NCBI GenBank assembly: GCA_964016885.1
Contig: OZ024743.1
Location: 199,206,001-199,270,000 of the forward strand
DNA length: 64,000 nt
Direction: 5' to 3'
DNA from: Eledone cirrhosa
Lineage: Eukaryota
Within the stretch, counting starts at the first letter, position 1; the number at the start of each line of letters is the position of its first letter. The notes under the pieces are model-generated. The model worked only from the letters and a program-made list of their open reading frames with translations, was not told where the DNA came from and did not search any database. Shown piece after piece: positions 9,211 through 59,212 of this stretch. The position numbers and the translations under genes are program-made.

Positions 9211-11429
9211 CACCAAAACGAAATGCACTAGGAGCTTCTCTTCACTCTGAATCTAGCCGCAGATACTAAAGGTGCCACCATCTTTGAATCTGTCAAGGGA
9301 TACCTCGAAGAAAAAGAATACCTCTTAACAATATTGTATCATGTGCTACGGACGGCGCAAGGGCAATGGTCGGCCAACATAAGGGTTTCGTCTCTCTTCT
9401 GAAGAGGGAAAATCCATCTGTATTTGCTGTTCATTGTCATTCATCGACAACACTTGTCTGCGAAGAAACTCAGCGAGCCGCTGAACAAGTCTTTGCAGGT
9501 AGCCATTGATGTCGTCAATTATATCAAACGCCATGCCCTCAATGAACGAATTTTCCGGCAACTGTGCGAAGATAATGACGAAGAATTCGTCGAGTTGCTT
9601 CTTCATACTGAAGTGAGGTGGCTTTCAAAGGGCAAGTGCCTTACTCGCTTCTTTGAACTGTTCGACTCTATCATTGAGTTTCTTCGAGGACGCAACACAG
9701 AGCTATATAAAAAAAACCTCGATGTGAGGCAAGACTGTGCCTACCTCGCCGACATCTTCGACAAATGCAATAGCCTCATTATGGCTTTGCAGGGGAAGAG
9801 GATCATCTTGTTTAAAGCAAGGAATGCTGTGAAAATATTCCTGGCTAAATTGAAAGTCATCGAAAGGAATTTTTGTCGACGGGAATTTTATAATTTTCCT
9901 AGTGTCGCCAATGTTCAAAACATTGTGAGCGATGACCTACTCCAAATTTATACCGCGCACCTCCATGCACTAGAAGACAACATGAGAGAATGGTTTGTCG
10001 ACCTTTTGCAGATGGACATCCCAATGTGGATAGCAGATCCCTTCATAGCTAACGTCGACGATTTGGACGTTACATTTCAGGAAGAATTAATTGAACTTCA
10101 GACAGATGACATTATCAAAATTAAATTTTACAAAATAGGTGAACCCCTTTTCTGGATGCAAGAGGAAATTCAGCGTCGATTCCCCCTCCTACATGCAGAG
10201 GCTAAGAGATTTGCTTTGCCTTTTCCTAGCTCATACTTAGTCGAGAGGGGGTTTGGCGCTGTTTCCAGACTGCATAGTAAGGCTCGCAACCGCTACAATG
10301 TGATTGCACGTGGAGATCTCCGACTACATCTTACGAAAATCCAGTCTGACGTCAAAGAATTAGCTAAACTCGATGAAGCTCAAGGGTCCCATTGAAACGA
10401 GGTCAAAGTAAGTCGATTTTTTATTTGTAGTTGCAGTCTGACTGGACTGGAAACCATCTACCACAATTCACTTACTCATTTGTTGTATATATTTTACCAT
10501 GGCCATCTCACAAGAGATAATAGATAATTCTAAAAAGGTGAATGAAAAAGAGACAGAGGGAAGAAACCAAAACTGCTAGATTATTATTTATACTTCATTT
10601 ATGAACCTCTAAAAAGATGAAAGGTAAATTTCCCCAAAAGGGCTGAAACAATTACTGTGAAGCATTCTATTCAATGACAGTTAATTAAGAAACAAAGATA
10701 AACCATTTTTTATGTATTTACCTCAATTCTCTTAGTTTTTTGGGAAAAAATAGTTCTGGAATTTTCTCTGAGAATTTTCAGCAGGGCTCATCAGCCATTG
10801 ATTTCCTTTATTATTTTATTGGTTTCATTGATTAGGAAGAGCATCCAGCCATAGAAACCTTGCCAATATATTGAAACATATGAAACAATTCACTTACTCA
10901 TTTGTTGTATATATTTTACCGTTTACTAATGAATATACCCTCTTACGTGGTCATGAAAACCCTCTTCCGTGTTCTCTAAGCTCACAAAGTGGAGGGGGAC
11001 ATCAAGTTAGATATCAACATTTATTCTGTCCGTTTCATTAAAGGAAAAATTGGAAAGCTTTGAAATAATACAATTGCCACTTTCTTCCAGATAAGAGCAT
11101 TCTTTGGATAGACAGAGTTGCTCTTGTATAAATGTTCAAAATAGCTGGTATCGTCTGGTGGGAATATAACAAATTCAACTGGTCCTTATTCATAAAAAAG
11201 AACATTTATGTTCCTTTTTTTTTAAATTTATATACTTCCTTTCAAGGAATATATTTATACTTTCAACTGCCTGCAATGGTATCTTTGGAATATCGTTAAT
11301 CAATTTTTTAGTAATCTACTGATATCAAAATCAGTAGTATATTGAAGAATGGAAAAATATGGTAGGGGGGCGTTTTGTGATTTCGAGGGTAAAAGGGGGC
11401 GTTTGGCCGAAATGGGTTGAGAACCTTTG
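9210..11429 (+). mobile_element. 3' half of a Buster/Charlie-type hAT DNA transposon (transposase C-terminus 9230-10395, right TIR at about 11415-11429)
   Basis: ELLF..L...TKG.TIF, IHRQHL, LLLHTEVRWLSKG, PFPSSYLVERGF and RGDLRL motifs; terminal ggttgagaacctttg followed by atctacac (nnnTAnnn, Buster-type target). Confidence 0.88.
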
Positions 11430-11909
11430 ATCTACACTATTGTGCCTACAATGAGATCATCATCATCATCATCTAACCTCTAACTCTTGGAGTGTGTGTG
11501 GTTCTTTTGAGTTCTCTGAAGATTCAGTTATATCAGTAGGGTCACCTCTTCTTTCAAGTATCATAGATATTGTGAATGGTCTACCATGGCCATCTCACAA
11601 GAGATAGATAATTCTAAAAAGGTGAAGGAAAAAGAGACAGAGGGAAGAAACCAAAACTGCTAGATTATTATTTATACTTCATTTATGAACCTCTAAAAAG
11701 ATGAAAGGTAAATTTCCCCAAAAGGGCTGAAACAATTACTGTGAAGCATTCTATCCAATGACAGTTAATTATGAAACAAAAATAAACCATTTTTTATGTA
11801 TTTACCTCAATTCTCTTAGTTTTTTGGGAAAAAATATTTCTGGAATTTTCTCTGAGAATTTTCAGCAGGGCTCATCAGCCATTGATTTCCTTTATTATTT
11901 TATTGGTTT

Positions 11910-15369: not shown

Positions 15370-15591
15370 AACGAAATTCCCCAACGCAGTTGGTGATTTC
15401 AGATACCTAGGAGGGACTCTCAACCGAAGAGTATATTCGGACATACTCATAGAAGAGCCGACGACCAGCTGAAGGGATGATTCAACGGTCCCTTCACCAG
15501 ACGATCAAGTGAAAAGGGATGGAAAAACCATCCTTCCTCTACGAAAAGTACGGTAAGTGGTCTTTCCCATCTTTTCCACTCTATTTTAAAC

Positions 15592-18500
15592 ATGACCTCA
15601 CTCAGAATAGGCAGCTTAAATGCGCGTGGCTTGGGGTCGTCATGGAAGCAGGGTCACCTGCTCAATGTACTCAGGTCACTAAACATAGATGTAGTGGCCA
15701 TCAGCGAGACCAGAATCTCCGAAGCACGGGCCTTCGCACCGGTCTTCGGCGGCTACGATGTGTACGCATCTCCCAGCCGTCCTGGATCGGGGGGGGGGGG
15801 GACTTGCTGTGCTTTTTCGGAGAGGTTTGGATCTCGCCATACGGGCCATCTTCCTGGACCCAGAGGGTAAGTTGGTGGTGCTGGACGTGACCAGCGGAGA
15901 CGGGCAAGCTTTCAGGCTAGTGGCCGACTATGCTCCGACAGGAGCATAGACGGCCTGATTTCTTCCGGCGTCTGGAGACCTTTCTTGGAACGTTCCGCTC
16001 TTTAGTGTTAGTGGCCGACTGGAACAGGATCTTAGATGCACGCTGGGAATGTGTGGGATTAGCGGATAGGGGGTGGAGGGTACAAGAGCCTCACCAACCT
16101 GCTCAGGCGTTTTGAACTGTCTGACAGGTACCGATTGGATTTCCCGAATGTGCCAATGTGGACTTGGACAAATCGCGTAGGGTCATCCAGATCATATCTA
16201 GATAGAGTATTTTGTAGGGAAATAGATAGGTCTAGCATAGGCTGTCCACAATTCAAGAGAGTCAGCTACACGGACCACAAATTCGTGATCTGTGTGCTTG
16301 ACTTAGATAGGCTTCATAGACGAAGACCCGGCTACTGGAAGCTAAACGCGTCCTTACCAGCGCGCAAGGCCTACAGAGACCGGATTAGCGAACTAGTTAA
16401 GCGGGCGTTGACGGGGCCATCGTCAACAACAAGTGGTGGTTTGCTCTGAAAAGAGCGATTAGAATAGAATCGATTAGGTTTAGTAAGGCTTTAGCAATAG
16501 AGAAAAATAGAGCAGAGGGAGAACTTTTTAGAAAATTAGACGAGGCGCTTAGCAAAGGCATTGCGACCGACGTGCTTGCGGCGAAATTGGCCCTTGACCA
16601 ATTCTTCAATGCAAAGCACGAAGGCTGCGTTGTCAGAGCTAGGGTGCGTGCTCTCAGACACGAGGGGACGAAAGCCGTTCAATGGGCTCGACTGGCGGAG
16701 GGGCGTCGTGGCAACAAAGCCACGATCCGGTCTTTGGTGGACCACGACGGGCGCATGCTACTTGATCCCGGGCAAATGTGTGAAGCTTTTCAGCGACATT
16801 TCGCACAGCTGTTCGGGGGCAGTGGCGGGCCGGGTCGAGGGATGGACTTTAGTGTCTACCTCGACGGACTGCCGCGGCTCTCGGCTACTGAGGCGGAGTG
16901 TTGCGAAAAGCCGATAACAGCCGCTGAAGTAAGGGAGGCAATGACTGACTGAACAAGGGATAAATCGCCTGGTTTGGATGGTCTGCCCTATGAACTTTAC
17001 GTACAGATGCCAGACCTGTTCGGAGGCCTCTTGGCGGACGTCTACTGCAACTGGCAACAGAACGGGAGAATTCCCAGTTCTGTGAGCCGAGGAGCGGTGG
17101 CACTGCTGAGAAAGGATCCGAACAAGGGGGATAACATAGATAATTTCAGGCCCATATCTCTGCTAAACACAGAGTTCAAGATTTTGGCCAAGGTGCTAGC
17201 AAAGAGGTTGGCGCTTGTCGTTGGTGGTCTGGTGGGAGAGGCGCAGACAAGCGCCATTCCCGACAGATCCATCCACGACAACCTCCACCTCATGCGATAC
17301 ATCGTAGAGAGGGTAGCTAGGGAACCTGGCACGGGTGGGTCCTTGATCAATTTAGATCAGTCGAAAGCTTTCGATAGGGTCGACCATCGTTACCTAGCGG
17401 CAGTCCTGAGGGCGGCTGGCTTTAGGCCTGTCTTTAGAAGCTGGATCGCTGCCATTCACAGCGACATCTGCTCTGTGGTGAGAGTGAACGGTCACCTTTC
17501 GGAACCGTTCAACAGCATGCGCTCGGCCCGCCAAGGATGTCCCCTCTCGTCCCTCTTGTACTTATTGTCTCTCGAGCCATTACTGCGCAAACTGGAGACG
17601 TTGAGGGGCGTCCCGCACGAACTAGGATGCGGAATATCCGTGTCAGCATATGCGGACGATGTCACCGTAGTGGTGTCGAACGCCAAACACATCGAGGCGA
17701 TCGGCACTACACTACGAGAATACGAAGCGGTGACAGGAGCAATGATCAACCAGGAAAAGTCAGTGGGCCTGCAACTCGGCATCTGGAGAGGCAGGTCCAT
17801 GCCGTCCAACAGCGTCGTCGGACGCTGGACGGACGGACCAGTTAAATTGCTAGGGGTCTGGTTCTGTCCGGACCTCCAGACAGACAAAAACTGGGATGAG
17901 GTGACGAGCAGGGTGGCTTCTCTCACCCAGAAATGGGCGGAGAGGAAGCTATCCCTGAAAGGTCGAGCGGAGGTGGCTAACGCGTACATCGCGTCTGTCA
18001 TCTGCTAATGCCTGACCGTCGTACCTTGTCCTAAGCCCCACCTGACTGCGCTGGAGCGTTTGCTCTTTCTCTTTTTGTGGAAGGGTCACGCTCCGATGGT
18101 CAGGCGGTCCATCTGCTGTCAACACCCGCTACGTGGAGGGCTGGGCATGCCGTGGCTGATGATGTGCTGATGATGCCAGTTTGGGATAAACTCTACAGGC
18201 ATGGAGGTGCCGTCAGCCGGGCATGTTCGAGATGCGCGCAGGGCGACGAAACCGTCCTGCATGCACTCGTCCAGTGGCCGACAATTGCTGACTTGTGGGT
18301 TTATGTCGAACACCTGCTGTCGCATTTTAGGACGGATCCGGCTTATCATCTGAGTCCATCGTGAGCATTGCCCCGCCCTCTTCCTTTAGCCGGGAAGGGC
18401 AGGCAGTTTTTATCTGTCTGGTGGCCATGGCAAAAGAGATATTATGGTGGACACGTTTGAAAGGGCTGAAGACGAGCACTTACCACTTCGGTGATGCCCT

Positions 18501-30085: not shown

Positions 30086-30586
30086 TCATCATCATCATCA
30101 TCATCGTTTAACGTCCATCTTCCACGCTTGCATCGGTTTGGACGGAAATTTTCCCACTTGAGGCAAGATTGGTTGTCCTGCTTGTATAGGACTGCCTGGC
30201 GGGTTTTCTACGGCTGGATGCCCTTCCTAACACCAACCACGTTTACAGTGTGGACTGGGAAGTTTTTACCGTGTTACCTACGCGACCACATTACAGCGTG
30301 GACTGTGTGTTTTTTTTGTCGTGACACTAACATGACCTCATTTATTTCGGACTGGATGTTGTGGTACCAACATAACTTTACATCGAAAGGGGTGGTGTGG
30401 ATGGGGTGGGGATAGTGGGAGGGGGGTGTATTTTTGTTAAGAGGTGCCTACTGACTGTAGGTTTCGCTTTGTACTTAGGTAAGGCGGGTCTTCTGTATTA
30501 CTGTGTAGCGCCAAAGATCTCGGTCCAGTGACATTGTCTCTTGGAGAGGTGTAAGTGTGTGAGGTCGGAATTTATCAAGTCGTCCC

Positions 30587-30587: not shown

Positions 30588-30626
<39 letters not shown>

Positions 30627-30628
30627 AT

Positions 30629-30685
<57 letters not shown>

Positions 30686-30812
30686 TGTATATATAGTGTA
30701 TTTTGCAATACACTGTATGCTTAATTAAAAGCATTTCGAAGACCTTACGCTATGGTTTTAGAGTAGTGACAGTCTCACTTACTTTAAATTTTCAGCAAAC
30801 AAGGGGAGATAA

Positions 30813-30857
30813 AGCTGACAGACCTCTGTTTCGTACTTTTTGGTACTTATCAAAGCT
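30813..30857 (-). ncRNA. Type I hammerhead ribozyme, U3-A8 core variant
   Basis: agct-TTGATAA-gtac caaaaa gtac-GAAA-caga gg tctg-TC-agct; all three stems pair, GUC cleavage triplet. Confidence 0.8.
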
Positions 30858-31162
30858 AAGTACTCCACCTGTTTGCTGAAAATCATGAATGTTTGATTCT
30901 TATAGAATTCTAGTAATAATCAGGAACTGATTATACAGAGCGGTTGCCAGTCAAGCAGAAATTGAAAATTTGAATTGGTGCTCTGAAATAGCAAAATATA
31001 CTATATATACATTCATATATATATATCGCTATTTCAGAGCACCAATTCTAATTTTCAATTTCTGCTTGACCGGCAACCACTCTGTATAATCAGTTCCTGA
31101 TTATTACTAGAATTCTATAAGAATCAAACATTCATGATTTTCAGCAAACAGGTGGAGTACTT

Positions 31163-31207
31163 AGCTTTGATAAGTACCAAAATGTACGAAACAGAGCTGA
31201 GTCAGCT
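31163..31207 (+). ncRNA. Second-arm copy of the U3-A8 hammerhead (stem III weakened)
   Basis: agct-TTGATAA-gtac caaaat gtac-GAAA-cagagctgag-TC-agct. Confidence 0.65.
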
Positions 31208-31366
31208 TTATCTCCCCTTGTTTGCTGAAAATGTTAAGTAAGTGAGACTGTCACTACTCTAAAATAATAGCGTATGGTCTTCGAAATGCTTTTAATTAAG
31301 CATACAGTGTATTGCAAAATACACTATATATACATCCATATATATATCGCTATTTCAGAGCACCAA

Positions 31367-31436
<70 letters not shown>

Positions 31437-31441
<5 letters not shown>

Positions 31442-32600: not shown

Positions 32601-32756
32601 TGTATAGCGGTATAGACATGGCTGTGTGGTGGTTGAGAATTTCACTTCAAAACTGAATAGGTTTGTATTTGGTCCTACTGTATGGCACCATTGGTAAGTG
32701 AAGTCTACTATAGTCTTCAGGCAACCATTGACTTGTGAGTGGTGAGTGAATCTCGT
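32601..32756 (+). mobile_element. Old tRNA-derived SINE, family 3 (inverted twin at 33491-33646)
   Basis: gacatggctgtgtggt...tggcacc.ttgg.aagtg...ctactatag...cttgtgagtgg; a related degenerate copy lies at about 49790-49950. Confidence 0.7.
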
Positions 32757-32784: not shown

Positions 32785-32842
<58 letters not shown>

Positions 32843-32844
<2 letters not shown>

Positions 32845-33432
32845 TATAAAATAACAGGAGGCTGGACTGGTGTAAATCCTTGAAATGTTTATTATACTAT
32901 GATCATTTCAATGACCGGGTTCAGTATGAATCCGGTGACATCATCAGGTATTCAAAATATAACAAAGGAATATAACAGATAAAATCCATGGGGCTGAAAA
33001 TCAGAGACAAGAGGACGACCGACTATTTAGCAGCTTCTACCTCAGTCGGTTGCCCTCGAGTAGAAGCTGCTAAATAGTCGGTCGCCCTCGAGTGAGGTAG
33101 AGGCTGCTAAATAGTCGGTCGTCCTCTTGTCTCTGATTTTCAGCCCCATGGATTTTATCTGTTATATTCCTTTGTTATATTTCGAATGATATCACCGGAT
33201 TCACACTGAACCCGGTCATTGAAAGGATCATAGTATAATAAACCTTTCAAGGATTTACACCAGTCCAGCCTCCTGTTATTTTATAATAATTAACTCCGTA
33301 CTCGCACCACCAATACACAAACGAAGACGGGTGAATTCATTACGTTGAGTACTCTCCTTAATATTACATCGAGATTGACCATACGGAATGATCAGTTCTA
33401 TCCAGTGGTGAACCAACTAACCTAAATAAAAA
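32843..33432. mobile_element. Fold-back HHR-bearing mini-element in (TA)n
   Basis: Arms of about 200 bp (32843-33045 and 33090-33287) are inverted; duplicated centre; about 145-bp unique tail. Confidence 0.85.
32894..32951 (-). ncRNA. Type I hammerhead ribozyme
   Basis: atac-CTGATGA-tgtc accgg a ttca tac tgaa c ccggt catt-GAAA-tgatca-TA-gtat; palindromic stem III. Confidence 0.82.
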
Positions 33433-33490
<58 letters not shown>

Positions 33491-33491
<1 letters not shown>

Positions 33492-33642
33492 GAGATTCAC
33501 TCACCACTCACAAGTCAATGGTTGCCTGAAGACTATAGTAGACTTAACTTACCAATGGTGCCACACAGTAGGATCAAACACAAACCTATGCAGTTTTGAA
33601 GTGAAATTCTCAACCACCACACAGCCATGTCTATACCTCTAT

Positions 33643-33797: not shown

Positions 33798-34755
33798 GTA
33801 TGTAACCATATCAGAATTTGATATCAGTTTTATCAAATAGAAAACGAAAAAAACAAATTTTCTACAGTTAAGCTGGGTTTTTATCAAGCAAAAATATAAA
33901 ATAAAATTAAATGAAAAACATATATAACATACAAAAGCATATACTTATCTTTCTTGTTAATGTCAATAAACACACACATGAGTGCAAATGTTCATACATT
34001 ATTTTGATGTAAGGGTCAGGGATATAAAAACACAGTGGTATAGCATGGTTATATGGAATTTAATATTTCAAAGCCCACCCAATACTAGATACTGTGTTAG
34101 GATATAAGAGAACATTTCAATCAGGTATATCAAACAAGAATGTTCTCAATGTATTTCCAACTACACATTCTTAAAAGGGAAAGCTTTTACCTATGTACAC
34201 AGATAATTTTGTATGTTTTCATATTAACGTGTGTGTATGTATATATGTAAGTATGTATGTGCATATATGTATGTATATATGTATGACCATAATTTTGTAT
34301 GTATGTATGCACATATGTATGTATTTAAAAATTACCAGAAATCATTATAACATAAATTCAAACATCATTTTATCAAATAAATGTAAAAAATTTAAATGCT
34401 GTTTGTATATAGGGGGAAAAGATAGGAAACAGTGTACACAGATATATTAATATATAGCATTCTTCCTGTTCATAAATACACACACACACACATATATATA
34501 GATACATATAGATAGATAGATAGATAAATGATAGATAAGTAGTTAAATACATACATATTTACATACATATGTACATATATAGATGCCTACATACATACAT
34601 ATATGTATAAACATATATGTATAAATGTATTCTGAGTTTTTTGAATATTAATAATAACATTCGATTCGTTTGCAATTATGAGAAGAAGCCTCATTTTTAA
34701 AGACATGTCAGTAGAATGAACCCTTCATTCTTGCTCTTGTGTTGGCATGTAAACA

Positions 34756-34805
34756 GAACTGCAGAAACTAATGTTTCTGGGTATCACCCTTCGTCAGTAC
34801 AGCTC
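34756..34805 (-). ncRNA. Hammerhead ribozyme motif (stem III degenerate)
   Basis: gagctgta-CTGACGA-a gggt gat accc a-GAAA-cattagtt-TC-tgcagttc. Confidence 0.65.
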
Positions 34806-35016
34806 ACTGTTCACCTGCCAACTGTCAAAGCTCGTATACAGGAAACTGACTGGCCAGTCTGCTGATATGCAAATCTGGCTGATCAATGGATCTGCTATTA
34901 TGCAGATCTGACTGATCAGCCAGTCTGCTAATATACAAATCAAGCCAATCAGTCACAGTATATTTTAGAAAATAGCATATATTTTCACTAGCTCTGACAG
35001 TTGGCAGGTGAACAGT

Positions 35017-35066
35017 GAGCTGTACTGACGAAGGGTGATACCCAGAAACGTCCGAGCCTGCAGTTC
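35017..35066 (+). ncRNA. Second-arm hammerhead motif (cleavage triplet mutated)
   Basis: gagctgta-CTGACGA-agggtgataccca-GAAA-cgtccgag-cc-tgcagttc; 8-bp stem I. Confidence 0.55.
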
Positions 35067-35444
35067 TGTTCACATGCCAACACAAGAGTAAGAATGAAGG
35101 GTTCATTCTACTGACATGGCTTTAAAAATGAGGCTTGTTCGCATAATTGCAACGAATTGAATGTTATTATTAATATTCAAAAAAATCAGATTACATTTAA
35201 TGTATACAACCATGTAGAGCGAAAAAAATATATATATATATAGTAATAATAAATGTAAAGACTTTAATCTGTGAAGACTTATAATAAATATATATATTTA
35301 TATATTTATTGTCGAGCTAATTTAAATGTGTAAACCCGGCTGCTATTTTTAGCAGCATATGTTTATGAGACATTCTAGGTTCTGATGCCATGTGCATTAT
35401 TTCATATTTGCACACTATTCAGTCTTAGAAATGGAGGGATTACT

Positions 35445-37566: not shown

Positions 37567-39035
37567 TCATCATCATCATCATCATCAGCGTTTAACGTCC
37601 GTGTTCCACGCTTGCATGGGTTTGGACGGGGGTAGTCCCACTTGAGGCAAGAGTGATTGTCTTGCTCGCATAGGACTGTCTGGCAGGTTTTCTACAGTTG
37701 GATGCCCTTCCTAACACCAACCACATTTACAGTGTGGGTCTGGGAGGTTTTTACCGTGTTGCCTACACGGCCACATTACAGCGTGGACTGTGTGTTTTTT
37801 TGTCGTGACACCTACACGATCTCATTTGTTTCGGCCTCGATGGCGCGGCACCAACATAACTTTACATAGAACGGGGTGGTGTGGATCGGGTGGGGGTGGT
37901 GGGACGGGGTGTATTTGTTAGAGATGCCTACTGGCTGGAGTAGGTTTTACTATATATTTAGGTAAGGCGGGTCTTCTCTGTTACTGAGTACCGCCAAAGG
38001 TCTCGGTCCAGTGACATTGTCTTGGAGAGGTGTAAGTGTGTGATGTCGGAGTTTATCGGCTCGTCCCAGGTTTTTCTAGGTCTGCCTATTCCGTGACTAC
38101 CGTCTATCTTTATTGCCCTGCACTTTGTTATACAGCTATCGACTTTCATGCGCATCACGTGTCCATACCAACGTAGCCTTCTCTCGAGTAAACAACATCT
38201 GATCCCTCTTATCTCTAATTTATTCCTTAGTTCGTTTATGCTTTGCCGTTCACGTATATTACTGTTACACATCCAGCGGAGCATGCAAGCTTCGTTCCTC
38301 TCTAGTCTGCGTATATCCTCTGCACACAATGCCCAGGTCTCACTGCCATGCAGCATTGCTGTTCGTATGCAGGCATCGTACAACCTGCCTTTCATTTTTA
38401 GTGAGAACCCTTTAGCAGCTAATAGTGGTATAAGCTCTCTGAACTTTTTCCAACCAGTTCTGACTCTAGCTACAGTACTTTCAGAGCACCCTCCCCCACT
38501 GCTGATTTTATCGCCCAGGTAACGGAAGCTGTCCACTATTTCTATAGAACCCTCTGCGCAATTGAAAGAGCTAGTAGTTTGTGGGCACTTGCTGCTACTT
38601 ATTGCACCAGAGCACCGGCCACATGTAAAATCTATGTTCTTAGTTAGCCTACCTGTGATCCCACTACATCTTTTATGCACCCATACTTTGCATTTAGGAC
38701 ATAAAATGGAGTTTCTACCTACGCCTTTCCTACACACCGAGCACGACCATTTCCCAGAAGGGACCGCCGCCTTGTTTTCTTTCCTACAAACTAGTACTTT
38801 GGTCTTAGCCAGGTTAATTTTAAGTCCTTTTGACTCTAGGCCGTGCTTCCATGTTTGGAATTTCTTCTCTAGCTCGGCCATTGATTCCGCTATGAGTGTC
38901 AGGTCGTCTGCGTATAGGAGTTCCCATGGGCAGCCTGTCTTGAACTCCTCTGTTATGGCCTGAAGGGCAATAATAAATAGTAGTGGACTGAGAACAGAGC
39001 CCTGATGGACGCCGACTTTTACGCTAAACTCTTCA
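37567..39035 (-). mobile_element. Young 5'-truncated RTE LINE; uninterrupted RT C-terminal ORF 37958-39035
   Basis: GVHQGSVLSPLLF, LLYADD, INLAKTK, Cys/His PHD-like insert, FRYLG, RLRWYGHV, GRPRKTW; 3' UTR and (ATG)n tail. Confidence 0.95.
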
Positions 39036-39079
39036 CATATACATATATACCTATATGCACACATATATATACACACATT

Positions 39080-39117
<38 letters not shown>

Positions 39118-39699
39118 CACACACACATACATATATATGGGGGGGGGGGGATGATATTGCAGTAGTGAGAGTAAGGAAAACCAAAACTTCCAATGTGTCT
39201 CACAGATAAAACAAATGACAAAAAAAGAAACTGTAGATTTGAGAACATTTTTTTCTTATTTCTTATAGAGATCAAAACACTGTCCAAGTTTCATCTAAGT
39301 CTCAGTTGTGTTCTCTTTTTGTATTATCGTTTTCTTTAGATTTCTTATATATTAAAATTGTTGGTTTATAGAATATCTTATAATATATATTATATTTTAT
39401 ATTCTATATTATAGTGTATTATAATATATATTATTTTATATTATGTATTATATTGTATTATAATATATCATATATATTATATCACAATATATATCATATT
39501 ATATTATAATATAGATTCTATTATATTTTAATATATATCCTATTATATTACAATATGTTATATTCTGCCAGGGGTTACGATCATTAAATAGTGTCAGCAT
39601 AAGAAAGACTAGTGTAAACATAGTTTCCTTCATCTGATTCAATGTTAAGCCTCTTTCCTTTCTAATATATTACGTTGCAGTATTTTGTATAGTATTATA

Positions 39700-42334: not shown

Positions 42335-44903
42335 TCATCATCACCGTTTTACGTCTGTTCTTCCACACTAGCATGGGTTAGACGGGTTGTCCTGTTATGG
42401 GCAGTGTCCGGTCGGCTGACCTTGTCTTGCTCATACGGGAACCGATTCTGGCTTGATTTCTACAGCTAGATGCCCTTCCTAACACCAACCTCATTTACAG
42501 TGAGTGCTGGGTGCTTTTTTTCCATGGCTCCTACACATCCACTTTACAGTGTGGGCTGGGTACTTTTTGCCGTGGCACCTCCATGACCACTTTGCAGCGG
42601 AAGGGTGTGGAGGCATATTGTCTATATGCATATTGCTTATATGCATATTGTCTATATGTCTATATGCTTCAGCTTCAGCTTGTACCCCTGGGGGGTTGGG
42701 TCTCCTGTATTACTGCGTGACGCCAGAGGTCACGGTCACGTGTCATCGCCTTTGAGAGGTGTAAGGGTAAGGTCGGCTTTTATCACCTCATCCCAGGTCT
42801 TCTTGGGTCTCCTCACTCCGCGGTTTCCATCGACTTCTACTGCTTTGCACCTTTTTATGCAGCTGTTATCCTTCATACACATCACATGTCCATACCAATG
42901 CAACCGCCTTTCCTGCACACAGCATTTGATTCCTCTTATGCTCAGTCTATCTCTCAATTCATTTTTGCTTTGCCGTTCGCGTATATTACTATTACACATC
43001 CATCGGAGGATGCAGGCTTCTTTTCTTTCTAATCTACGCAAGTCTTCCACAGAGAGCGCCAGGTCACACTACCATGTAACATTGCTGTTCGTATACACGC
43101 ATCATACAGTCTGCCTTTCATTTTGAGGGAAAAGCCTTTTGCGGCTAGCAGTGGCTGTAGCTCCCTGAACTTCTTCCATCCCGTTCTTACCCTAGTTATT
43201 GTACTTTCCGAACACCCACCTCCGCTGCTACTTCGGTCACCTAGGTAGCAGAAGCTGTCTACTGTTTCTACAGAGCCCTCTCAGAGTTTGGTGGTACTTG
43301 TTTCCTGTGGCCGTTTGCTGCTTGCTGTCCCAGCGCAGCTGCTACATGTGAAGCCTACATTCTTAGTTAAGCTTCCTGAGATTCCACTACATCTCTTGTG
43401 TACCCAATTTTTGAATTTGGGGCAGAGGATAGAGTTCCTACCTACACCTTTCCTACATACTGAGCAAGGCCATTTCCCTGAGGGATTCTGGGTTCTGTTT
43501 TCTCGTCTACTTACGAGGACCTTAGTCTTTGTCAGGTTGACTTTGAGACACTTTCTTTCTAGTCCCTGCTTCAAAGTTTGGAATTTCTTCTCTAGTTCTA
43601 CCATAGATTCAGCTATAAGTGTGAGGTCATCAGCATACAGGAGTTCCCATGGGCATCCGGTCTTAAACTCCTCTGTTATTGCCTGCAGGACTATGATGAA
43701 CAGGAGGGGGCTAAGAACAGAGCCTTGGTGGACACCAACCTGTACGCTAAATTCCTCGCCATACTCATTGCTAATCCTAACTTTGCTGACTGCTCCCCCT
43801 ATACATGGCTTGTACAGCTTTCAGAAGCCATTTATCTACTCCTAGTTTTCTAAGAGCCCACCAAATTATAGCACTTGGAACTCTTTCAAAGGCTTTCTCG
43901 AGATCGACGAATGCCAGGTAGAGTGGCTTACTTTTAGCTAGGTACTTTTCCTATAACTGCCTCACAAGGAAGAGGGCATCAGTGGTGCCTCTTCCTGGCA
44001 CAAACCCAAATTGCATCTCATCTAGTTTCACCCGGTCCCTAATCAACTGTGCTATAACACTTTCTGTTACTTTCATGAGCTGGTCCATCTGCTTTATACC
44101 TTTATAGTTTCCTCTATCGAGTGCATCACCTTTACCTTTGTAGCACTTGACAATGATGCTACTGCACCAATCCTTTGGTATGACACCTTCTAGTATTACC
44201 TGGTTAACAATACGTGTGGTTATGGTGTGACCTACCGACCCAGATGTCTTCAGCATCTCGGCAGCTATACCTGATGGACCAGTTACCTTCCCCGTCTTCA
44301 TATCTTTGACTGCCTTATTTACTACGCTGCTTCTGACTTGTACTGGTGGTCCCTCTATAGGGTCTACTTGGGGTAGGGTCTCTTCTTCCCATGCATTCTC
44401 CTCATTTAGTAATCTATCATAATGGCTCTTCCATGCATCTTTCTTCTCAGCACTTGTGAGGGCAAGCACACCTTTATCATTCCAGATACACTTCTCTCCA
44501 ATGACATCACAATTCTCTCTGACACACTGCCACGCAATCTTGAACACCTCCTGTTTCTGGTCCTCACGTTGCAAAACATGCTTGAATTTTCTATCCTCTG
44601 CTTCCCTTCTAGCTAAGTATACTTGTCGCCTAGCTTCCCTCCTGGTCTTTATGTAATATACTCTCCTTCCCCCGTTCTTCCATTCTTTCCATGCCTGTCC
44701 CTTGGCCTTAACTGCCTCATCTACCTTATTGTTCCACCACTATGTCACTCTCCTCCTGCCTGTGGTCTTACTCCAGCCACAGATCTCATCCATCGCCTTT
44801 AGTAAGTTATTTGTTAGGAACTCTACATTGAATATCTCTATCTGTTCTTCTTTACTGTCATAGGCGTTGAGTAAAATATCTTTAAATCTGTTACTGCCTG
44901 AGG
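42335..44903 (-). mobile_element. 5'-truncated, decayed RTE LINE spanning the linker, RT and 3' UTR
   Basis: MKTGKVTGPSGI, YKGKGD, QFGFVPGRGTTDA, FVDLEKAF, GVHQGSVLSP and YADD (about 43627) across broken frames. Confidence 0.95.
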
Positions 44904-55097: not shown

Positions 55098-55290
55098 GTA
55101 CATATATATATACATATATATATATATGTACATATATATATATACATACATATATATATAAGGGAGAGAATTGGGAGTGTGTAACACTCCACTTATCAAA
55201 TAGAGAGTATATGGTTAGCTCAATGTCAGAGGACAGAGCCGTAATACAATTAACAACAAAGAGCGCTTAGAACATAGGTATATCTTTAAT

Positions 55291-55336
55291 TGCTAACAGT
55301 GTTTCGTCCACACTAGAAGTGGGACTCTTCAGAGCA
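55291..55336 (-). ncRNA. Type I hammerhead ribozyme in a roughly 210-bp insert (55160-55370)
   Basis: tgct-CTGAAGA-gtcc cac ttcta gtg t ggac-GAAA-cactg-TT-agca; stem I is extended by tcttta/taaaga. Confidence 0.85.
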
Positions 55337-55393
55337 TAAAGAGTAAATACAAAGTGTACAAGCATTGACATATATATATATATATGTACATAA

Positions 55394-56100
55394 TATAGCT
55401 CTGATTTATCTGAATTATTGAGCCCTCTGCCACTCATGTCGAATTTTGTTTATCGTGAACTCGTGCGCCGATTTTTCGATACTCGATTATTCTACTATAT
55501 TTAGCTCTAGACTTAGCTATTGACCAGTTAATTTTATTGTTCATTTTTTGTCGATTCTATTAAATGATGAATAGCTCCTGTTTATTTTAACATGTCTATT
55601 GAGCACTCTTATTCGATATGTGATTTTCCACATTCCCGAATATTTTTCGCGGATATAGAGGTTATCTCCCTTGCTGGATTCCATGTGCGTTTTCAGCTAG
55701 GGTTGGCTTTTTTATTCGTCTGGACAAAGCTCGTTGATAAAGTATTTCCTATCCGCCGCTCTCTAGAAGTCTTATATATTTTTATGTGGGCTGATAGTGG
55801 GCGGTTTAAGGATTTACAGAAACCCAAGAAGCTAGATTTACCATCTTTCTAGTGGGTCCGGGTAAGCTTTTTACGTTCACATGATTTATTGATTTATTGA
55901 TATTTTATCTGAGTGACCCGAATCTTCCTGATCGTAATTTTTCGGTCGTATGGTTGATTTTAGACATAATCTATGTGTGTTGATATTTTAACGATAGTTA
56001 TAGCTCTGATTTATCTGAATTATTGAGCCCTCTGCCACTCATGTCGAATTTTGTTTATCGTGAACTCGTGCGCCGATTTTTCGATACTCGATTATTCTAC
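55394..56100. mobile_element. 707-bp unclassified element with identical 102-bp terminal direct repeats, in (TA)n
   Basis: 55394-55495 equals 55999-56100; CpG-rich relative to the flanks; no recognisable ORF. Confidence 0.75.
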
Positions 56101-56101
56101 C

Positions 56102-56133
<32 letters not shown>

Positions 56134-56637: not shown

Positions 56638-57332
56638 ATCATCATCATCATCATCAGGTTTAGCGTCCGTGTTCCACGCTTGCATGGGTTTGGACGGGGG
56701 TTTTCCCACTTGAGGCAAGAGTGGTTGTCTTGCTCGCATAGGACTGTCTGGCGGGTTTTCTACAGTTGGATGCCCATCCTAACACCAACCACATTTACAG
56801 TGTGGGGCTGGGAGGTTTTTACCGTGTTGCCTACACGGCCACATTACAGCGTGGACTGTCTGGCGGGTTTTCTACAGCTGTATGCCCTTCCTAACACCAA
56901 CCACATTTACAGTGTGGGGCTGGGAGGTTTTTACCGTGTTGCCTACACGGCCACATTTACAGCGTGGACTGTGTGTTTTTTTGTCGTGACAACTACACGA
57001 TCTCATTTCTTTCGGCCTGGATGTTGTGGGACCAACATAACTTTACATTGAAAGGGGCGGTGTGGATGGGGTAGAGGTGGTGGGACGGGGGGGTGCTTTG
57101 ATAGAGATGCCTACTGACTGTAGTAGGTTTTTACTTTGTATTTAGGTAAGGCGGGTCTTCTCTATTACTGAGTACCGCCAAAGATCTCGGTCCAGTGACA
57201 TTGTCTTGGAGAGGTGTAAGCGTGTGAGGTCGGAATTTATCAGCTCGTCCCATGTTTTTCTGGGTCTGCCTACTCCGTGGCTACCGTCTATCTTTATTGC
57301 CCTGTACTTTGTTATACAGCTGTCGTCTTTCA
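56638..57332 (-). mobile_element. 5'-truncated RTE LINE 3' end with a tandem duplication in the UTR
   Basis: MKDDSCITKYRA...GRPRKTWDEL...KTRLT*; a UTR block of about 110 bp is duplicated (56742 and 56853). Confidence 0.92.
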
Positions 57333-57443
57333 TGTATATATATATATGTATATATATATGTATATATATATGTATATATATATATGTATACATATATATA
57401 TACATATATATATACATATATATATATACATATATATATATAC

Positions 57444-58957: not shown

Positions 58958-59212
58958 TGTTATACTTTGGGAGGGTCATGTTGCCAATAAGAAACACACG
59001 CACCAGTTGCTTTCACTTCAATTTATTATAATAAATTTATAATAAATTTATATATTTCTGGTCGGTTGGTTGGTTCCACAACCAGATAGTTGTTTATATA
59101 TTGTCATAGTTCTTTCGTCACACACTCTGTGACCTCTTCAGTGACAGGGGATTCCTTTCTTTGTTTTTGTGCCTCTCCTTTGTTCTGTCCTACGCCAAAT
59201 TCAGAAACGAAA
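58958..59212 (-). mobile_element. 255-bp HHR-bearing mini-element in (TA)n
   Basis: Sharp (TA)n borders; same ends as the 33701-33748 derivative. Confidence 0.75.
59102..59146 (-). ncRNA. Minimal type I hammerhead ribozyme
   Basis: tgtca-CTGAAGA-g gtcaca gagtg tgtgac-GAAA-gaac-TA-tgaca; perfect stems I and II, minimal stem III. Confidence 0.82.

Follow-up and report, generated by a model that had tools for sequence, protein, structure and literature searches.

Penelope-like elements (PLEs) leave insertions that, as described in PMC8557442 and PMC8969392, are partial tandems with a tail of 30–40 bp at one end, often with an adjacent, inverted and 5′-truncated copy at the 5′ end. A preference for (TA)n is stated in PMC8557442 for Naiads, which have no canonical hammerheads, and the same source names the way in which the PLE inversion arises as unresolved. 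In Pen2a of Adineta, for which self-priming was proposed by its authors, the inverted pLTR is 37 bp shorter than the direct one, the tail measures 31 bp and a TATATATA box is present (PMC3846280). Purified PLE protein of the anole cuts and extends both strands of AT-rich DNA; in vitro, uncleaved RNA was used, reverse transcription began at two internal sites delimiting the tail, and hammerhead cleavage was dispensable for insertion (PMC11167929). Pairs of hammerheads on opposite strands, 100–700 bp apart, are described from Schistosoma, where the U3-A8 covariation of the hammerhead core occurs in the Cercyon PLE (PMC4209133). The consensus of the core is given in PMC7151607; according to PMC3088659, its U3-A8 form occurs naturally and shows activity in vitro. 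Penelope-like families are also reported to be active in Octopus vulgaris (PMC13282606).

Retrozymes, in turn, are low-GC tandem units of 150–450 bp with type I hammerheads (PMC7229834). Their expression in circular form is documented for coral, mussel and axolotl, and PLEs are considered a strong candidate for mobilising them (PMC7229834; Cervera and de la Pena 2020), a role argued from co-occurrence and from pLTR phylogeny (PMC7229834; 10.64898/2026.07.22.740005). The latter preprint (Li, Clavereau and Pollet) links retrozymes to pLTRs by distribution and phylogeny, and reports cleavage in vitro for one of nine predicted Xenopus retrozyme dimers and none for the other eight.

Retrozyme-sized hammerhead units, the U3-A8 core, and inverted, partial-tandem PLE insertions with tails have therefore already been described. 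The value of the locus reported here is their combination, a retrozyme-sized unit with a PLE insertion footprint, which lends further support to the mobilisation of retrozymes by PLEs. It is best explained as the decayed insertion of a non-autonomous, hammerhead-bearing, PLE-derived and retrozyme-like mini-element into (TA)n (probability roughly 0.8).

Two head-to-head copies of a 321-nt unit within a TA microsatellite

The element occupies positions 30673–31373 of a 64-kb window (the whole stretch of Eledone cirrhosa DNA that was analysed) and consists of two unit copies placed head-to-head within an AT microsatellite. Its features are the following.

30588–30682, no strand: left (TA)n target array with one interruption, the last ~10 nt of which are perhaps the unit's own TA run
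30673–30992, minus strand: inverted arm of one period (310–320 of 321 nt)
30788–30883, minus strand: the inverted arm's type I hammerhead, including a long closing stem (core start 30853, cleavage base C17 at 30817)
30991–30992, no strand: GC microhomology at the inversion junction, common to both copies
30993–31027, plus strand: 35-nt loop between the arms, which is the upstream part of the terminal redundancy
30991–31052, plus strand: 5′ terminal direct repeat of 62 nt, resembling a pLTR
30991–31372, plus strand: forward 1.19-mer of 382 nt, non-coding as far as tested
31137–31232, plus strand: type I hammerhead of the forward piece with its closing stem (core start 31167, C17 at 31203)
31314–31373, plus strand: 3′ terminal direct repeat of 60 nt
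31348–31372, plus strand: one-sided 3′ tail past the mirror point
31373–31438, no strand: right (TA)n target array

Alignment of the direct repeats (30991–31051 with 31314–31372) revealed two substitutions and one 2-nt difference in TA length, and the homology extends by one further base, to 31052/31373. The period is 323 nt when measured between GCAAAATA starts and 321 nt between GCTATTTCAGAG starts. These results bear out the first-pass annotation of this DNA, which had proposed terminal direct repeats of about 60 bp at 30991–31372, a unit of about 322 nt and a short TA run belonging to the unit itself. It had also described an inverted copy of the whole unit; an inverted arm is indeed present, its extent now being refined to just under or short of a full period and its ends being shifted. 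Specifically, the arm (oriented from the strand of its hammerhead) aligns 30682–30992 with 31028–31338 at 13 differences over 311 positions and without gaps, and is a circular permutation of the unit, starting 37 nt downstream of the start of the forward piece. Its inner end is at 30992, and its outer end is ambiguous over 30673–30683 because the unit's TA run merges with the left (TA)n of the host. The forward piece ends at 31371–31373, inside the right (TA)n array, so the tail beyond the mirror point measures 24–36 nt, an exact value being blurred by TA ambiguity at both ends.

The footprint of a PLE insertion is thus recognisable in the partial tandem (direct repeats of 60–62 nt), in the adjacent, head-to-head and 5′-truncated inverted copy, and in the (TA)n on both sides as an AT-rich microsatellite target. 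The earlier proposal that the inverted arm matches the 5′ inversions published for PLEs holds in this respect. Terminal inverted repeats (TIRs), which the first-pass annotation named among the marks of a DNA transposon, were absent from this locus: the outer ends proved unrelated beyond a few bases in alignment, and any target site duplication (TSD) is unreadable inside (TA)n. The loop between the arms (30993–31027) contains two TA runs, is TATA-like, and could form a weak fold-back as DNA.

With 33% GC and 321–323 nt, and non-coding as tested, the unit lies within the retrozyme range (150–450 nt, GC below 50%). No long ORF, including any for reverse transcriptase (RT) or GIY-YIG, is present in the element, and six peptides of the unit gave no meaningful Pfam match. 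A stop-free frame of 46 codons does span the hammerhead in both arms; it had no Pfam match and no match at E ≤ 0.001 among 1.84 billion proteins. Further copies of the unit were not found elsewhere in the 64-kb window. The exact degenerate hammerhead pattern had no match in GTDB genomes, and blastn with 297 nt of the unit had none in plasmids or phages, all of these being prokaryotic sets that are silent on eukaryotes. No paper on a cephalopod retrozyme was among the best matches of our literature search; the supplements of retrozyme papers may list such sequences.

Opposite-strand type I hammerheads, one per arm

The single hammerhead per unit noted in the first-pass annotation was recovered in each arm as a type I hammerhead, both with our own descriptor and as sub-threshold Rfam matches to Hammerhead_HH9 (24.5 bits and E 0.0014 in the inverted arm, 19.1 bits and E 0.077 in the forward arm, with a gathering score of 52). 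Across the 64-kb window, all Rfam matches stayed below the gathering score of their family, and the many low-threshold miRNA matches were dropped because they are produced merely by the long hairpin. The descriptor gave four matches in the real window versus a mean of 0.017 in 60 block-shuffled windows, and a match as good as the inverted-arm hammerhead occurred in none of these 60.

In both arms, a helix I of 4 bp is extended by the long closing stem and followed by the core, a helix II of 4 bp with a 6-nt loop, GAAA, helix III and GUC. Both cores have U3 and A8 in place of C3 and G8, corresponding to the known U3-A8 covariation. Helix III of the inverted-arm hammerhead is 4 bp long, and the catalytic fold is predicted to be the minimum free energy structure (MFE) of the 103-nt region (ddG 0.0; ensemble probability 0.14). 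The forward hammerhead is predicted to be misfolded, its catalytic fold lying at +12.3 kcal/mol with a probability of ~1e-9; three clustered changes at 31197–31200 in this arm break helix III and create a competing hairpin.

The two hammerheads lie one per strand with 314 nt between their core starts, and the descriptor found no same-strand tandem of at least two hammerheads at this locus. Because its hammerheads sit on opposite strands, the locus cannot release unit-length RNA by double cleavage, and it is a dead end for ribozyme-made circles. A read-through transcript is predicted to be 91% paired in a 311-bp hairpin. Since inverted Penelope copies are a known source of siRNA (PMC3681739), the hairpin at 30673–31373 may, by analogy, help to silence its family. 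Splice-acceptor-like and donor-like motifs (31138–31144 and 31238–31243) flank the hammerhead stem in both arms, possibly by chance.

Comparison with PLEs and retrozymes

The locus resembles endonuclease-bearing (EN+) PLEs such as Pen2a_Av and anole Poseidon PAc, and the scheme in the Fig. 2 legend of PMC8557442, in its partial tandem, inverted copy, one-sided tail and AT-rich target, as well as in its hammerhead and in the TATA-like run beside the inversion junction. With Adineta Pen2a_Av it further shares an offset of 37 nt, and TATATATA occurs within the loop at 30993–31027. In contrast to EN+ PLEs, the element here is without an RT or GIY-YIG ORF and without a readable TSD, its hammerhead is situated mid-unit, outside the 60-nt redundancy, and its tail is 24–36 rather than 30–40 nt long. 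The Cercyon PLE of Schistosoma, as presented in PMC4209133, has the same U3-A8 core, and opposite-strand pairs are known from that genome; however, the hammerheads there are minimal ones with a long helix II, whereas helix II here has 4 bp and a 6-nt loop, and the inverted arm has a helix III of 4 bp.

Likewise, the non-coding, low-GC, structured unit of ~320 nt with one type I hammerhead is similar to metazoan non-LTR retrozymes, which have been proposed to be mobilised by PLEs, as we propose for the element here. These retrozymes differ from the present element in that a same-strand hammerhead tandem is lacking here, the core is of the U3-A8 type, and the evidence consists of sequence. The head-to-head inversion and the tail set it apart as well, and the word 'inverted' is absent from the main text of PMC7229834. 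The locus fits retrozymes solely as a 'monomer derivative', a category of 10.64898/2026.07.22.740005. It is accordingly a retrozyme-like dispersed monomer derivative and not a proven retrozyme; we keep to 'retrozyme-like' because the hammerheads are not in tandem here and circular RNA is hypothetical at this locus.

A possible route of insertion

For the insertion favoured here, the (TA)n would have been nicked by the GIY-YIG endonuclease of an autonomous PLE acting in trans; we infer this supply in trans because the element is without an ORF. Starting internally on the RNA, at what is now the right end (31372), RT would then have made a first cDNA of 1.19 periods that passed the hammerhead cleavage site intact. 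The template would have been longer than one period or have been re-entered, as a circle, a tandem transcript, or a linear RNA on which RT jumped strands by way of the terminal repeat, and one locus cannot choose among these three.

The inverted arm might have arisen by fold-back of the cDNA, which would have primed itself at the GC microhomology. The self-complementary TA loop would have helped in this, and the new strand would have left at the TA run that follows and joined the left (TA)n. Alternatively, a second cDNA could have been primed on the other nick. We lean slightly towards fold-back, because both ends of the arm would then be set by the same TA feature, explaining its one-period length. 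The computed probability that the 3′-terminal GC pairs in the observed register is only 0.17–0.39, and the observed stop ranks 41st of 299 positions for 3′-end pairing. The 5′ inversions made by twin priming of L1 are similarly head-to-head, with microhomology at the junction and an outer end at an internal target-like run. The pieces here, however, overlap over a whole period, so that a multimeric or re-used template, or else fold-back, would be needed. Later change of ~2% in each arm would have left the forward ribozyme misfolded.

Where the inverted arm has its inner end, a post hoc scan revealed a TATA motif at 31002 and an initiator (Inr) A at 31031. Transcription starting immediately behind the TA run is no more than a weak lead, because a TATA lies within range of three of the unit's seven Inr-like sites, the scan was post hoc, and the two neighbouring elements had no TATA/Inr pair in the same scan. 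Primer collision on a circle, a transcription start after the TA run, and stalling of RT at a TA hairpin all predict the observed inner end, and the locus therefore cannot separate them. Because the unit is short, family-wide mapping of ends could separate the circle, linear-jump and fold-back models of PLE inversion.

Divergence of the arms and alternative explanations

Divergence is alike in the arms (13/311) and in the direct repeats (two substitutions in 59), and the segment of ~60 nt that is present three times has one private substitution in each copy. This pattern fits a single event followed by decay of ~2% per copy. Two of the 13 arm differences are CpG-type transitions, one per arm (31071/30949 and 31079/30941). 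The substitutions are clustered (four gaps of at most 2 nt among the 13; P ~0.009), more so than simple point decay would predict; possible sources are hairpin-templated multi-base changes or two variant RNA templates. Four of the 13 fall within the 37 of 311 nt that make up the hammerhead, an enrichment that is not significant (P 0.059). No compensatory covariation between the arms was seen, different pairs being broken in each.

Long palindromes beside microsatellites are difficult to assemble, and the hairpin might in principle be a fold-back artefact of the assembly or library. The first-pass annotation had argued that it is not a simple one, and rightly so: the number of arm differences, without indels and with CpG-type transitions in both arms, and a symmetry that ends at the element together make an artefact highly improbable. 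The flanks past the TA arrays are unrelated in either orientation, the best mirror-orientation local match in the 300 nt outside each array being only 9 nt. Scarcely more plausible is an origin at the DNA level, as a MITE or foldback element, a non-autonomous Helitron or a repair inversion of a tandem repeat. Such an origin would suit a long inverted repeat in a TA target, and DNA-level inversions between TA arrays may occur here, given that 147 bp of flank of the neighbouring element at 32.8 kb is itself inverted. The right end of the element, CTAA before T, also fits a Helitron-type end. However, neither outer end is an inverted copy of the other, the tail makes the structure asymmetric, no GC-rich subterminal hairpin is present, and the conserved hammerhead with its covariation would be left unexplained. 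More weight, while still unlikely, can be given to the idea that the locus is only the terminal (pLTR) part of an autonomous PLE, that is, a heavily 5′-truncated partial tandem with an inverted pLTR. Hammerheads reside in pLTRs, most dispersed ones being ascribed to truncated PLEs in PMC4209133, Xenopus retrozymes are homologous to pLTRs according to 10.64898/2026.07.22.740005, and the 46-codon frame stays open across the hammerhead in both arms. That frame nevertheless lacks any Pfam match or homologue in the searches above, and a period of 321 nt would be unexpected unless the template had one.

A different question is whether the RNA template was circular. The first-pass annotation had read the terminal redundancy and the single hammerhead per unit as what reverse transcription of a circle or concatemer of about 320 nt would leave, as in retrozymes. 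The part concerning a non-coding hammerhead unit of retrozyme size stands; a circle, however, is not required, as the 1.2-mer could just as well stem from linear or multimeric RNA, given the uncleaved RNA and internal starts used by a PLE in vitro (PMC11167929). We regard it as possible, at somewhat less than even odds, that a 321-nt circular retrozyme RNA served as template, on which one cDNA would have run for 1.19 rounds and a second, primed from the TA run, would have stopped after one round at its own primer. Size, 33% GC and the type I hammerhead fit the metazoan retrozymes of PMC7229834, the length of the inverted arm does not exceed 320 of the 321 nt, and the cleavage site, at 175 nt within the unit, is not an end point of either copy. 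The circular fold is also structured (z −5.4 and −7.6 versus 100 shuffles each), yet much of this score comes from the hammerhead stem and local hairpins and not from circle-specific pairing. Against a circle, moreover, the locus has one hammerhead per strand and no tandem pair, the same geometry is found in ordinary PLEs (PMC8557442, PMC3846280), PLE insertion in vitro does not need hammerhead cleavage (PMC11167929), and eight of the nine predicted Xenopus retrozyme dimers stayed uncleaved in vitro (10.64898/2026.07.22.740005); the circular reading is itself drawn from the DNA sequence. More tentative still is the notion of a cephalopod family of U3-A8 retrozymes, in which PLE enzymes would turn circular RNA of 321 nt into dispersed copies bearing the full PLE signature of inversion and tail. 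If this were true, the one-period inverted arm would record RT meeting its own primer on a circle, the hitherto hypothetical mobilisation of retrozyme circles by PLEs would gain direct footprint evidence, and the unit would offer a compact system in which to study the formation of PLE inverted repeats.

Neighbouring elements in the window

The 64-kb window is repeat-rich animal DNA with many TA arrays and RT-bearing LINE remnants, three of its 27 ORFs matching RVT_1. Two more TA-flanked head-to-head elements of unrelated sequence (32837–33432 and 34622–35240) lie within 4 kb of the element at 30673–31373, and the head-to-head architecture is therefore common locally. In the first of these, the arms of ~210 nt differ by seven substitutions and two gaps, the right arm is ~140 nt longer, and a 30-nt direct repeat lies at the centre. 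Its left arm has the start of a hammerhead-like core, which a deletion has removed from the right arm and which fails the descriptor. Outside its TA arrays, 147 bp (32609–32755 and 33491–33637) form an inverted repeat of 96.6% identity, making up a nested palindrome of ~1.1 kb. The second element has arms of 213 nt, 33-nt tandem repeats in a spacer of 150 nt, and a tail of ~29 nt on the right; a core resembling a minimal hammerhead is found at ~35026–35052, and a perfect hairpin replaces the cleavage region in the left arm. In all three inverted elements, one arm has a clustered change at the hammerhead or hammerhead-like core (31197–31200, ~33175–33180 and ~34765–34775). With n=3, this could reflect hairpin-templated mutation or selection against cleavage.

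Further along, a TA-flanked unit at 55160–56108 (minus strand) has a near-identical terminal repeat of 103 nt and a period of 605 nt; a short TA run separates it from a following segment that carries a type I hammerhead (55332–55295). Judged from its sequence, it looks like another PLE-type partial tandem. The part at 55394–56108 is at most a putative remnant of a PLE endonuclease, seven peptides having no relevant Pfam match and one 51-aa piece no homologue. A minimal hammerhead with a helix II of 6 bp and an extra base after A9 is located at 59107–59141 (minus strand), in a 260-nt segment between two TA arrays. The five hammerhead or hammerhead-like motifs of the window aligned at a mean identity of 52%, which is uninformative and corresponds to different families.

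LINE copies in which RT is followed by a PHD finger occur at 30106–30586, 37590–39199, 42698–43820 and 56658–57334, and at least two of them adjoin (TA)n arrays, including the left flank of the element at 30673–31373. A broken LINE at ~15481–18008 combines a weak exonuclease/endonuclease match with an RT (16953–18005). Most of the at least 120 matches listed for this RT are unnamed; the named ones include proteins with 50% identity from a cuttlefish and with 63% identity (over 48% of the query) from an argonaut, as against 36% for two fish proteins, which fits a host that is probably a cephalopod. Finally, a 331-bp direct repeat with 97.6% identity is present at 10495–10825 and 11582–11909, the two copies being ~1.1 kb apart.
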